NCBI GenBank assembly: GCA_934292725.1
Contig: CAKQXY010000001.1
Coordinates: 105,728 to 169,727, forward strand
DNA: 64,000 nt
Reading direction: 5' to 3'
DNA from: an uncultured Lachnospiraceae bacterium
Lineage (GTDB): Bacteria > Bacillota > Clostridia > Lachnospirales > Lachnospiraceae
This document shows, one piece after another, positions 3,621-21,277 of this stretch. The notes under the pieces are model-generated. The model was given only the letters and a program-made list of their open reading frames with translations. It searched no databases and was not told the origin of the DNA. Both the position numbers and the translations under genes were made by a program. Every line of letters begins with the position of its first letter. Position 1 is the first letter of the stretch.

Positions 3621-4298
3621 ATGGGACTGTTAAAATCTTTATTTAATAAAAGAAACAATAATCTGGAAAATCAAATATTAAATCTTCCCGATGCAGAAAT
3701 TTCTAAGCTTCCGAAGTATTTAATATATCCTCAAAATCTGGATTCAAAAGCAAAAGCTATCTCCAATCAAAAATGCGGTTACCAGCTTATGCTGGATAAC
3801 GAACTTGCAAATACGACACCTGAAGTAAAAAAAAATCAGCCAGCTTTTGATTGTAACGAAACTCACATTTATTGGAAAACGAATCTTCCATACTTTGTTA
3901 GTGTTACTACAATGAAAACACCCAGTGTAAAAACATCGAATCTGAAAGGATGGGTAGAATCTCAGGATAAGATGGGACAAATGTTTGGTTCTATGATTTC
4001 GTTTCTCAATCTTCCATCTAAAATGAAGTTTGGCGAATATACATGCGTCCAAATGATCTATTTAGGGCAATCAGAAACTTATAATAAGCTTCATAGCTTC
4101 GAAGAGACTCATGTATATTGTCATATTTTTTTTCTTGGAAATCAATTATATAAGAAGTTTATTTTATGTGCAAAACGTGGAATAACGTCTTGGAAAGTTG
4201 AGTGTACGATTCCAACAGAGCCAAATGCAGTACCAACGCAAAATATAGAATTACCAGGAATGATTTTTGGCTCTTTTTTTAAGGCAATGAACAAGTGA
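3621..4298 (+). CDS. Hypothetical protein
   Basis: 225-aa ORF with no recognisable motifs; a terminator follows it. Confidence 0.4.
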   Translation: MGLLKSLFNKRNNNLENQILNLPDAEISKLPKYLIYPQNLDSKAKAISNQKCGYQLMLDNELANTTPEVKKNQPAFDCNETHIYWKTNLPYFVSVTTMKTPSVKTSNLKGWVESQDKMGQMFGSMISFLNLPSKMKFGEYTCVQMIYLGQSETYNKLHSFEETHVYCHIFFLGNQLYKKFILCAKRGITSWKVECTIPTEPNAVPTQNIELPGMIFGSFFKAMNK

Positions 4299-4383
4299 TA
4301 CTTCTACAGAAAGACAGACCTGCGATATTCGATTATTTGAAGTTTCAGGAGCATTTTGCCCTCAGATACCAACAAGTTCGCTA

Positions 4384-4413
4384 ATCGGCAGGATTATTCT
4401 TGCCGATTTTTTC
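4384..4413 (+). terminator. Rho-independent terminator: atcggcagg-attatt-cttgccgat followed by a T-run
   Basis: GC-rich stem followed by TTTTTT, seen directly in the sequence. Confidence 0.6.
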
Positions 4414-4445
4414 ATGGTTCAGAAGAAAAAAACGTTACTGTTCAT

Positions 4446-4617
4446 GGATAAGCCAATATTGCGGAAAAGCCCGAAGGTGAATGGATTTCACGAGACGGAC
4501 ACTTGAAGCAGGTCTTTCAAAGTAATGTATAATAAAAAAGAACATAAAAGGAGCCTGCGGAGTTTGGTCCGTCGACGAAACCATTGAACCGAAGGGCTTG
4601 TGTTGTATGACGCATGA
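4446..4617. repeat. Copy A of a ~170-bp conserved element (the second copy is at 20988-21168). Its 133-nt core is closed by AAGCCC...GGGCTT, and a T8 run follows at 4618-4626
   Basis: Manual alignment of the two intergenic regions gives about 88% identity with the closing helix conserved. Confidence 0.6.
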
Positions 4618-4641
4618 TTTTTTTTACTTATCAGAATTAAC

Positions 4642-5703
4642 TTAATCTCTAAGCTTTACTGCATTTCTTGCACCGCGTCGTCTATCATCTTCAAGAGCAG
4701 CGTAGTGCTTTTTTGTTGTATTTACATCGTTATGTCCAAGAACATCTGCCACCAAATAAATATCGCCAGTTTCGCGATATAAATTTGTTCCGTAGGTACT
4801 GCGCAGCTTATGAGGTGTGATGTGTTTGACTGTCGTAACAGTTTGGGCGTATTTTTTTACTAGCTTTTCAACAGCTCTTACACTGATTCGTTTTTTTTGA
4901 AGTGATAAAAACAAAGCTTCCTCATGACCAGCTACAGCATCTGTTTTTTTGCGTTCTTCAATGTATGAAAGAAGAGCGCTTTCAACTTCATCTCCAAAAT
5001 AAACAACAACCTCCTTACCGCCTTTTCTATGAATGCGAATACCATCATTTTTAAAATCAACATCATCAATATTTAGTCCTACGCATTCCGATACGCGGAT
5101 GCCTGTTCCAAGCATTAGTGTAAGAAGCGCTATATCACGCAATTTTGTCCTGTCATGGAAACGTTGTTCTCGCTCAGATAGTTTATCACCACTTTCTGCC
5201 TGATCGAGCAGCAATGCCACCTCATCGATATCTAGCCTTGTAATTGCCTTATCATGTACCTTTGGCATAGTTACAAGATCAACAGGGTTATACGTAATAT
5301 CTTCATGCTGAATAAAATATCGATAGAAAGAGCGAAGAGAAGCAAGCTTTCGTTTTAATCCTAGTTCATGGTTTGTTTTTGTATTATTGCTTCCTTCATT
5401 TTTAGGATCCGTATATGCCTGCAGATACTCAAGATATTCCTCAATATCAGTGGGACGAAGCTTCTCCAAATCATCTAATGTAATATCACGAATTTCTTTT
5501 TGGGCAAAGATAGGATTATTTTCATGCAAATATGAAAAAAACACATTTAAATCATATGCATAAGCAATTCGAGTGCGCGATTCTGTATGAGGCTGGATAC
5601 CACGAAAATAATCCTTTGCATATGGTGGAAGAGTACTGATTAGCATTCGCAGGCGGTATGTATTATCAATATCAATCTGCTCACTATATGAATTAACTCC
5701 CAT
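4642..5703 (-). CDS. Tyrosine site-specific recombinase, XerC/XerD-like. Its start lies immediately after the ttcA stop, so it is co-transcribed with ttcA
   Basis: C-terminal catalytic region carries the R...HxxR...Y signature (HKLRSTYGT...LGHNDVNTTKKHY); its 5' end directly abuts the ttcA stop. Confidence 0.7.
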   Translation of the reverse strand: MGVNSYSEQIDIDNTYRLRMLISTLPPYAKDYFRGIQPHTESRTRIAYAYDLNVFFSYLHENNPIFAQKEIRDITLDDLEKLRPTDIEEYLEYLQAYTDPKNEGSNNTKTNHELGLKRKLASLRSFYRYFIQHEDITYNPVDLVTMPKVHDKAITRLDIDEVALLLDQAESGDKLSEREQRFHDRTKLRDIALLTLMLGTGIRVSECVGLNIDDVDFKNDGIRIHRKGGKEVVVYFGDEVESALLSYIEERKKTDAVAGHEEALFLSLQKKRISVRAVEKLVKKYAQTVTTVKHITPHKLRSTYGTNLYRETGDIYLVADVLGHNDVNTTKKHYAALEDDRRRGARNAVKLRD

Positions 5704-19958: not shown

Positions 19959-20948
19959 TCAGGCATGATACTCACGATTTGCAATTGATAATAAAACCAT
20001 CTCAACTGCAATACGCTCGTTCATATTTCCTCTTTTTACAGCTTCCTCAAGTTCAACACAGCGCTCAACGCAGCTTGTCAGCTGATCAATGGTGAATTGT
20101 CTTGCCTGGCCAAGCAATTTGTTAACTACAAATGGGCGAACCTTTAAAGCAGCTGCAATTTGATCCTTATTCTGGCGTCCGACTTCCATCTCCTTTACAC
20201 ATAAAAGCTGATTCATCTGACGTGCAATCAGAAATAAAATACGCATTCCTGGTTCTTTCAATGCTAATAGATCAGCATATAATTCAAGTGCAGACTGTGT
20301 CTTTCCCTCTGCTACGGCCTGTGTCATATCAAAGATTCTATTTTCAATCTGTTCCGTACAGACAAAATCAACATCTTCTTTTGTGATGCCTTCTTTTCCC
20401 ATACAAAAAGAAGCTAATTTTTCCATCTCATTTCTGATGTTTTCCATGTCATCACCTGTTTTTTCAAGAAATGAATCAAGTGCAGATTGTGTGATTTTTA
20501 ATCCGTAGCGACCAAATCCCTTTAAAATCCACTGTATACGCTGCTGCATTGAAGGATGCGTCATCTCTGCGCAATAGCCACATTCCTTTACAGTCTTATA
20601 CATTCTGCTTCGCTTATCTACTTCCTGTTCAACAAAAAGGACATGGCAGCTGTCTGGAATTGATTTAACAAGATTACTCCACTGCTCATCACTGCTTTTA
20701 AATAATCCTGTATCCTCCAGCAGCACCAAACGTCTGTCTGCAAAAAACGGCATTGTCATTACCGCATTTTCCACTTCCTGTACAGGCAGACCTTTCCCGG
20801 TATATTGATTCAAATTCATAGTATCATCGCCGATGATTGCTTTTTTTAACTGATTCTTATACATCTGAACCAGATATCGTTCCTCGCCATATAAAAGATA
20901 TACGCGCTCAAACTGATTGGCACGAATATCCTGCCTGAGTTTTTCCAT
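19959..20948 (-). CDS. holA: DNA polymerase III delta subunit. The start is assigned to MEKLRQ, which follows an AGGAG RBS
   Basis: Position relative to comEC/rpsT/gpr; clamp-loader delta N-terminal pattern (VYLLYGEE..L). Confidence 0.75.
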   Translation of the reverse strand: MEKLRQDIRANQFERVYLLYGEERYLVQMYKNQLKKAIIGDDTMNLNQYTGKGLPVQEVENAVMTMPFFADRRLVLLEDTGLFKSSDEQWSNLVKSIPDSCHVLFVEQEVDKRSRMYKTVKECGYCAEMTHPSMQQRIQWILKGFGRYGLKITQSALDSFLEKTGDDMENIRNEMEKLASFCMGKEGITKEDVDFVCTEQIENRIFDMTQAVAEGKTQSALELYADLLALKEPGMRILFLIARQMNQLLCVKEMEVGRQNKDQIAAALKVRPFVVNKLLGQARQFTIDQLTSCVERCVELEEAVKRGNMNERIAVEMVLLSIANREYHA

Positions 20949-20987
20949 AAAGACTCCTAATAATATTTTTGTATCGTTACAGTTCAC

Positions 20988-21168
20988 GGACAAGCCAATA
21001 TTTACAGCAAAGCCCGAAGGTGAATGGCTTTCACGAGGCGGACACTTGAAGCAGGTCTTTCAAAGTAATGTATAATAAGAAGTAACATAACAGGAACCTG
21101 CGGAATTTGGTCCGACGACGAAACCATTACACCGAAGGGCTTTCGTAACATGACGCGTGAACAGTATT
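20988..21168. repeat. Copy B of the ~170-bp conserved element (copy A is at 4446-4617). The core 21010-21142 is closed by AAGCCC...GGGCTT
   Basis: About 88% identical to copy A over about 170 bp and in the same orientation; lies in the holA / kinase divergent intergenic region. Confidence 0.6.
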
Positions 21169-21277
21169 ATTCTATCATTCTTTTTGCTGTCAATCAAGCA
21201 AATGGTGTTTACTTTACATCGGCAAGGAATTATAATCTTCTTGTAACAGTAAAGAAAAATGTAAGGAGATTTACCAA

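Follow-up and report, generated by a model that had tools for sequence, protein, structure and literature searches.

The window, the whole stretch of DNA analysed here, comprises 64,000 nucleotides of contig CAKQXY010000001.1 from an uncultured Lachnospiraceae bacterium (assembly GCA_934292725.1), and two of its intergenic spacers each hold a copy of the same short segment. Copy A lies between the convergent genes 3621-4298 (plus strand) and 4642-5703 (minus strand). Copy B lies between the divergent genes holA (minus strand, likely start ATG at 20948) and pfkB (plus strand, 21278). These contexts, and the presence of two similar segments in the same orientation, are as the original prediction had described them. 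When copy A was compared with the window by blastn, positions 4433-4617 matched 20975-21160 in plus/plus orientation with 87.1% identity over 186 bp (E ~1e-61), and copy B was the only further match, a count based on blastn with short words. The 133-nt core with its closing helix AAGCCC/GGGCTT was also found as predicted, at 4467-4599 and 21010-21142. The extent first given to the two segments was too short, since the full element is ~192 bp and its terminal inverted repeats lie outside those limits. The features of the two sites are listed below by window position.

4383-4412, plus strand: terminator-like hairpin and T-run of the upstream gene (3621-4298), also present in element-free strains
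4434-4617, plus strand: copy A, with the right terminal inverted repeat cut after ...GCATGA (from alignments and sister contigs)
4434-4447, plus strand: left terminal inverted repeat of copy A, GTTACTGTTCATGG (from the alignment)
4467-4599, plus strand: hairpin core of copy A, 133 nt, closed by AAGCCC/GGGCTT (read from the sequence and the fold)
4618-4625, plus strand: T8 run, flanking DNA outside the element (from element-free and sister strains)
20968-20975, no strand: presumed left target-site duplication of copy B, TTTGTATC (from flank comparison)
20976-21168, plus strand: copy B, full length, 193 bp (from alignments and empty alleles), with a right boundary uncertain by ~5 nt because of a short TTGTAT repeat in the target
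20976-20989, plus strand: left terminal inverted repeat of copy B, GTTACAGTTCACGG (from the alignment)
21010-21142, plus strand: hairpin core of copy B, 133 nt (read from the sequence and the fold)
21155-21168, plus strand: right terminal inverted repeat of copy B, GCGTGAACAGTATT, compared with the consensus GCGTGAACTGTAAC (from the alignment)
21169-21176, no strand: presumed right target-site duplication of copy B, ATTCTATC (from flank comparison and empty alleles)

The ends of the element were defined by aligning copies together with their flanks. Similarity among the copies ended exactly at the terminal inverted repeats, which are 13-14 bp long and read GTTACAGTTCAYGG ... CCRTGAACTGTAAC in most full copies; the inverted-repeat end sequence of the element is GTTACAGTTCAYG. 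Nearly the whole length is an imperfect palindrome, and the centre is almost invariant, also in copies that had not been chosen by their centre. The sole conserved open reading frame has 14 codons and no usable ribosome-binding-site spacing. At ~192 bp, the element is non-coding and well below the size of about 500 bp that limits a MITE.

The element is flanked by 8-bp direct repeats, that is, by target-site duplications. These were perfect at five sites (CTCTTGGT, TTTGTACC, TTCCAAAG, AATAATTA and CCTAGTTA) and matched at seven of eight positions at five additional sites. Among 27 independent sites, a duplication of at least six matching positions was present in 14, compared with 0.69 expected from permutations of the flanks, and none of the 27 reached this level at control offsets. 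The duplicated octamers are AT-rich and have no clear consensus. About 40% of the sites, copy A among them, show no recognisable duplication. For copy B, the partner of the duplication is ATTCTATC in the window (6/8 positions) and ATTGTATC in contig L115 (7/8).

Empty alleles were found for copy B. In three conspecific contigs (L117, L118 and L119; PfkB 97% identical), the holA-pfkB spacer is 137 bp long and holds no element, and the flanks are collinear. The filled allele is 192 bp longer than the empty one, whereas 201 bp would be expected of a clean insertion that duplicates 8 bp, so that one small extra indel must be assumed. Two independent assemblies that carry the exact window PfkB end inside copy B (L115:1-118 and L116:1-54), and the repeat fragments assemblies of this organism. 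Several other features of this spacer and its neighbours were recorded. The longest open reading frame called for holA, from a TTG at 20993, enters the element; the gene probably starts from the ATG at 20948, which has an AGGAG site. A promoter-like site on the minus strand, TTGACA-16-AATAAT, occupies window positions 21166-21193, immediately beyond the right end of copy B. Should this be the promoter of holA, the insertion may have added ~190 nt of antisense element to the holA leader. In the related contigs, holA was called as two frames of 85 and 243 aa (L117:1374-2363) and a ComEC-like gene was split into 262 and 557 aa (L118:3436-5878); both splits are possibly frameshifts or assembly errors in metagenome contigs.

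Element-free and sister strains also clarified copy A and the T-run beside it. The left junction of copy A coincides with the start of the inverted repeat, as the element-free flank of contigs L123, L126 and L131 agrees with the window as far as the last base preceding GTTAC. At the right end, approximately the last 8 nt of the inverted repeat are missing. Contigs L128 and L130 carry the copy A insertion with an intact right end, ...CATGAACAGTAAC, followed directly by ATTCAAC with no T-run. The right junction in the window, L125 and L129 reads ...CATGA-TTTTTTTTACTTATC, and the TTTTTTTTACTTATC motif occurs in element-free strains too; in L123, L126 and L131, ...TTTTTTTTTACTTATC... stands at the place of the T8. 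Because element-free strains share the T-run and intact sister copies are without it, the T8 belongs to the flanking DNA, which was joined to a truncated element. The original prediction had taken the T8 directly after copy A as the own terminator of a plus-strand transcript. The run is where it was placed, but it belongs to the flank, is absent from sister alleles and other copies, and does not serve the element as a terminator of its own. Copy A has lost its right end since insertion and is probably immobile. No terminator-like site was found close to copy A other than that at 4383-4412, which is independent of the element.

The surroundings of copy A vary among strains. Contigs with an identical recombinase show three configurations downstream of it, two of which are element-free, and the copy A site is empty in L123-type and L124-type contigs. 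Window positions 4300-4641, downstream of the recombinase gene (4642-5703, minus strand), are a strain-variable hotspot beside a chromosomal tyrosine recombinase. The gene sets observed right after the stop codon of the 353-aa Phage_integrase-family protein (L123-L132) were of three kinds: one for a 225/220-aa protein, together with the MITE; one for a protein of 787 aa; and one for a 76-aa protein with an MCRA-like gene.

The copy number and host range of the element were determined from its centre and its ends. One exact 22-mer from the centre had 23 matches in three species-representative genomes: 17 in Anthropogastromicrobium aceti H6_35, on many contigs, and three in each of two Lachnospiraceae metagenome-assembled genomes. 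In these loci BLAST revealed further copies, both full and partial, and the 22-mer and BLAST together gave at least 18 copies over many contigs in A. aceti H6_35. The terminal-repeat pattern matched at least 120 contigs, all from human-gut metagenomes. The plasmid collection contained no match to either this 192-bp family or the second, 166-bp family described below. In the phage collection, the only matches were unverified human-faecal scaffolds, among them four 'Bacteriophage sp.' records; they were rejected as phage carriers, being in reality pieces of bacterial chromosome.

Several derivatives of the element were found. A second family of 166 bp, with identical terminal repeats, is nested in the right arm of a copy of the first (L018:6005-6192; also L168 and L230), and this composite is present at more than one locus. 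In L018, the left flank of the nested element is GAGTTTGA and the right flank GAAACTGG, and the expected direct duplication appears as an inverted repeat. L009 carries a chimera of the two families; this chimeric copy lies ~100 bp from an apparent minus-strand tRNA gene (L009:7500-7600, read by eye). Mini-derivatives of 51-139 bp (L192:5840-5890, L143:1880-1946, L162:1545-1618, L199:1182-1276, L025:5129-5209 and others) keep both terminal inverted repeats and have lost the top of the hairpin; some of their deletion junctions fall in short repeats at the hairpin base. Shortened copies of the left half occur in L004 and L010. We considered these as left ends of insertion sequences and rejected this, since the next genes are a response-regulator gene and plsX and no transposase is present. 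In L200:1317-1508 and L149:1218-1410, the right flank of the L246/L146 site is joined to differing left flanks, which suggests rearrangement by recombination between dispersed copies.

Taken together, both segments are, with high confidence, copies of one bacterial MITE, a non-autonomous DNA transposon. The family has terminal inverted repeats, target-site duplications, multicopy dispersal in a narrow clade of gut Lachnospiraceae, presence/absence polymorphism, and derivatives that are nested, chimeric or shortened by deletion, and all its copies are intergenic. A high copy number together with target-site duplications had been named beforehand as the observation that decides between a small RNA and a MITE, and this is what was found. 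The family is new but of a well-known kind. A full-text literature search for the repeat sequence returned only primers, a literature search for MITEs in Lachnospiraceae returned nothing relevant, and with no literature or database match the family appears undescribed.

The element is most likely moved by a DDE-type transposase that is encoded elsewhere and would act in trans. It would bind the terminal repeats and cut the target with an 8-bp stagger, after which the element would insert; such a staggered insertion would leave the 8-bp duplications. No transposase bounded by these terminal inverted repeats was found in the window, in the first 27 loci, in related loci totalling ~1 Mb or in viral contigs. 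A scan of the viral contigs with the 14-mer terminal repeat gave only chance matches in phage genes. Across 120 metagenome loci, pairs of terminal repeats at a distance of 0.3-5 kb enclosed ordinary genes and no transposase, and a generic search of metagenome loci for open reading frames flanked by inverted repeats found no transposase either.

We compared the element with the closest known systems. Insertion-sequence families that duplicate 8 bp include IS6, IS66/ISBst12, IS256, ISL3, IS1595 and the ISPepr1 group of IS4 (ISfinder summaries). An 8-bp duplication together with short terminal inverted repeats is as expected of a deletion derivative of such insertion sequences. The end of the element, GTTACAG..., is unlike the end signatures known for these families (GG, GTAA, Ga/g). 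As a candidate parent did not emerge either, no family was assigned. The Correia/NEMIS elements of Neisseria resemble the element in being ~100-190 bp long, with terminal inverted repeats, dozens or more of intergenic copies and a long hairpin over the whole element, and also in being often near gene starts and having length variants by internal deletion. Correia elements, however, duplicate the dinucleotide TA rather than 8 bp, have no sequence similarity to the Lachnospiraceae element and reside in Proteobacteria rather than Bacillota. Their effects through promoters, IHF sites and RNase III are documented. ERIC/IRU and the pneumococcal RUP and BOX elements are likewise imperfect palindromes of 100-200 bp in transcribed intergenic DNA that are polymorphic for presence among strains. 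They also differ in their ends and duplications, as ERIC and RUP duplicate TA and BOX is modular without inverted repeats, and none has sequence similarity to the Lachnospiraceae element. The partner of RUP is IS630-Spn1, whereas no partner was found for the element described here.

We next consider the hairpin. In the window, each strand of the element folds into one long imperfect hairpin (z ~-2.7 per strand), with an energy of -53.9 kcal/mol for the plus strand and -45 kcal/mol for the minus strand. The check for a common fold and compensatory changes that accompanied the original prediction showed that the hairpin is real and covaries. RNAalifold on 26 copies gave 42 pairs, nine of them with double compensatory changes. 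In a count over the same pairs, 98.8% of cells were paired, and the nine pairs changed on both sides compare with 2.0 +/- 0.9 in shuffles, none of 500 of which reached nine, a significance that these controls overstate because the copies are related to one another. Slid controls had far fewer changes on both sides than the real hairpin. In a second set of 30 copies, collected mostly by their ends and not by their centre, 12 of 51 pairs covaried, some of them inside the terminal repeats. Compensatory changes even inside the terminal inverted repeats are unexpected for passively decaying copies of a MITE, and this part of the evidence needs a further explanation.

One such explanation is that the hairpin of the MITE is also a selected, strand-specific RNA module in neighbouring mRNAs, either a processing or stability element or a mobile regulatory cassette, a role like those reported for Correia and ERIC elements. 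Besides the double changes in the two copy sets and the near-invariant centre, three observations would fit such a role. First, internal loops and bulges are kept across copies. Second, the plus strand is favoured: G-U pairs exceed A-C combinations on it (23 vs. 9 cells), and its fold is more stable by 3 kcal/mol in 23 of 30 copies. Finally, in the larger de-duplicated sample 16 insertions lie in divergent spacers compared with two in convergent ones. A preference of the element for AT-rich promoter DNA as its target, the length of the spacers or selection may each account for this excess. An orientation bias toward the downstream gene in tandem contexts, seen in the first 26 copies (10 vs. 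3), was lost in the de-duplicated sample (8 vs. 6), and the overstated shuffle significance also weakens the case. An effect of the hairpin on neighbouring transcripts at the RNA level is possible, but selection of the hairpin as an RNA module is on balance unlikely.

The changes that have arisen since insertion point to a different origin of the covariation. Quasipalindrome mutation, a template switching within a DNA palindrome, yields 'compensatory' changes without selection. Two orthologous copies at the copy A insertion (L128:3070-3261 and L130:2417-2613) differ by a GAA to TTC block in the right arm of L130, which converts a GAA/GAA internal loop into a perfect complement. The L144 site has GA/TT at the same internal loop. 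The remaining differences between orthologous copies after insertion are single and uncompensated, which also speaks against selection for an RNA module. The clustered changes in L130 and L144 and the inverted duplication at the nested element suggest hairpin-templated mutation, which is not selective. Because such mutation itself yields compensatory pairs, the covariation does not prove an RNA function. These results suggest that the paired changes keep the hairpin and arise at least partly from hairpin-templated mutation of a DNA palindrome. The most variable pair was noted separately. Alignment columns 63 and 140 (window 4494/4573 and 21037/21116) take the forms C-G, A-U, G-C and U-A as well as a G/A mismatch, between invariant neighbours. 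The commonest form makes a CCGG site in both arms, and every variant destroys it; a link to methylation or restriction avoidance is possible.

A further reading holds that the hairpin is required as a single strand of plus polarity. It would then be either a mobile RNA module influencing how host transcripts are processed or how stable they are, or a fold-back intermediate of single-stranded DNA for an undescribed transposase that duplicates 8 bp, and the covariation into the terminal inverted repeats would reflect selection and not templated repair. We consider this quite improbable.

The MITE reading also has to be weighed against one in which the two segments encode members of an unannotated family of small RNAs, each segment being a gene with a plus-strand promoter and a terminator of its own. 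A stable hairpin and the T8 after copy A would fit such genes, as would a TTGAAG...TATAAT-like pair in the apical region. These apical hexamers, TTGRAG and TATAAT/TATGAT/TTTGAT, are located within the loop of the hairpin. A spacer of 19 nt separates them, and because of its length the pair was not called by the promoter scan, which found no canonical promoter in either copy. The -10-like hexamer is itself variable, and a transcript started from this pair would comprise the right arm only, so the covarying hairpin could not form in it. A terminator of its own was not found in all copies; the T-run occurs only at copy A and is part of the flank. Furthermore, the gene neighbourhoods of the copies are unrelated, and the duplications and inverted repeats indicate that the copies arrived by transposition. 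The whole window had no Rfam match at gathering thresholds, both copies had only chance sub-threshold matches (E at least 0.4) when searched at E up to 10, so that no known family was identified, and an ARAGORN scan for tRNA and tmRNA found none. Small-RNA genes of this kind are thus very improbable. The original prediction had left a small-RNA family and a MITE-like element side by side. The MITE has stood, with at least 18 copies in one genome, 8-bp duplications, terminal inverted repeats and an empty site. The self-terminated plus-strand small RNA has not, given a T8 that is flank, no promoter and no Rfam match.

The length of the hairpin, the compensatory changes found in each of its arms and the templated changes, which are evidence for DNA hairpin formation in vivo, could also bring to mind a REP/REPIN-type repeat that is mobilised in single-stranded form by a transposase of the RAYT (IS200/IS605-like) kind. 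REPINs are, like the element, a short mobile DNA family within a genome whose long hairpin has co-changing arms. They are tied to a RAYT gene, and to our knowledge REP and REPIN elements have neither target-site duplications nor classical terminal inverted repeats. The Lachnospiraceae element has both, with no RAYT gene in view and no adjacent or recurrent Y1-transposase gene in the loci examined, and this origin is hardly credible. Weakest of all, the reading of the copies as attL and attR of a 16.5-kb integrated element using the adjacent tyrosine recombinase (4642-5703), to which the direct repeats 16.5 kb apart and the Phage_integrase-family gene adjoining copy A could be fitted, is refuted by gene content and copy distribution: the interval holds core genes (lexA-, obg-, rplU-, rpsT-, holA- and gpr-like, and also PepT-like, from translations with which Pfam labels on orthologous contigs agree), either copy is absent independently in conspecific strains, and the repeat is present at dozens of unrelated sites.

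The MITE family thus has consequences for a common human-gut clade of Lachnospiraceae. It breaks metagenome assemblies of these bacteria, creates strain-level differences in promoter regions, such as the holA leader and the spacer before pfkB, and can mediate rearrangements, as the recombinant flanks indicate. It should be masked or annotated, lest it be mistaken for a small RNA or a riboswitch. In addition, the family offers a clean natural data set on hairpin-templated (quasipalindrome) mutation. The most interesting by-product of this work is the direct evidence for hairpin-templated mutation that mimics RNA covariation, which carries the warning that covariation alone, in palindromic mobile DNA, does not demonstrate that an RNA is functional.
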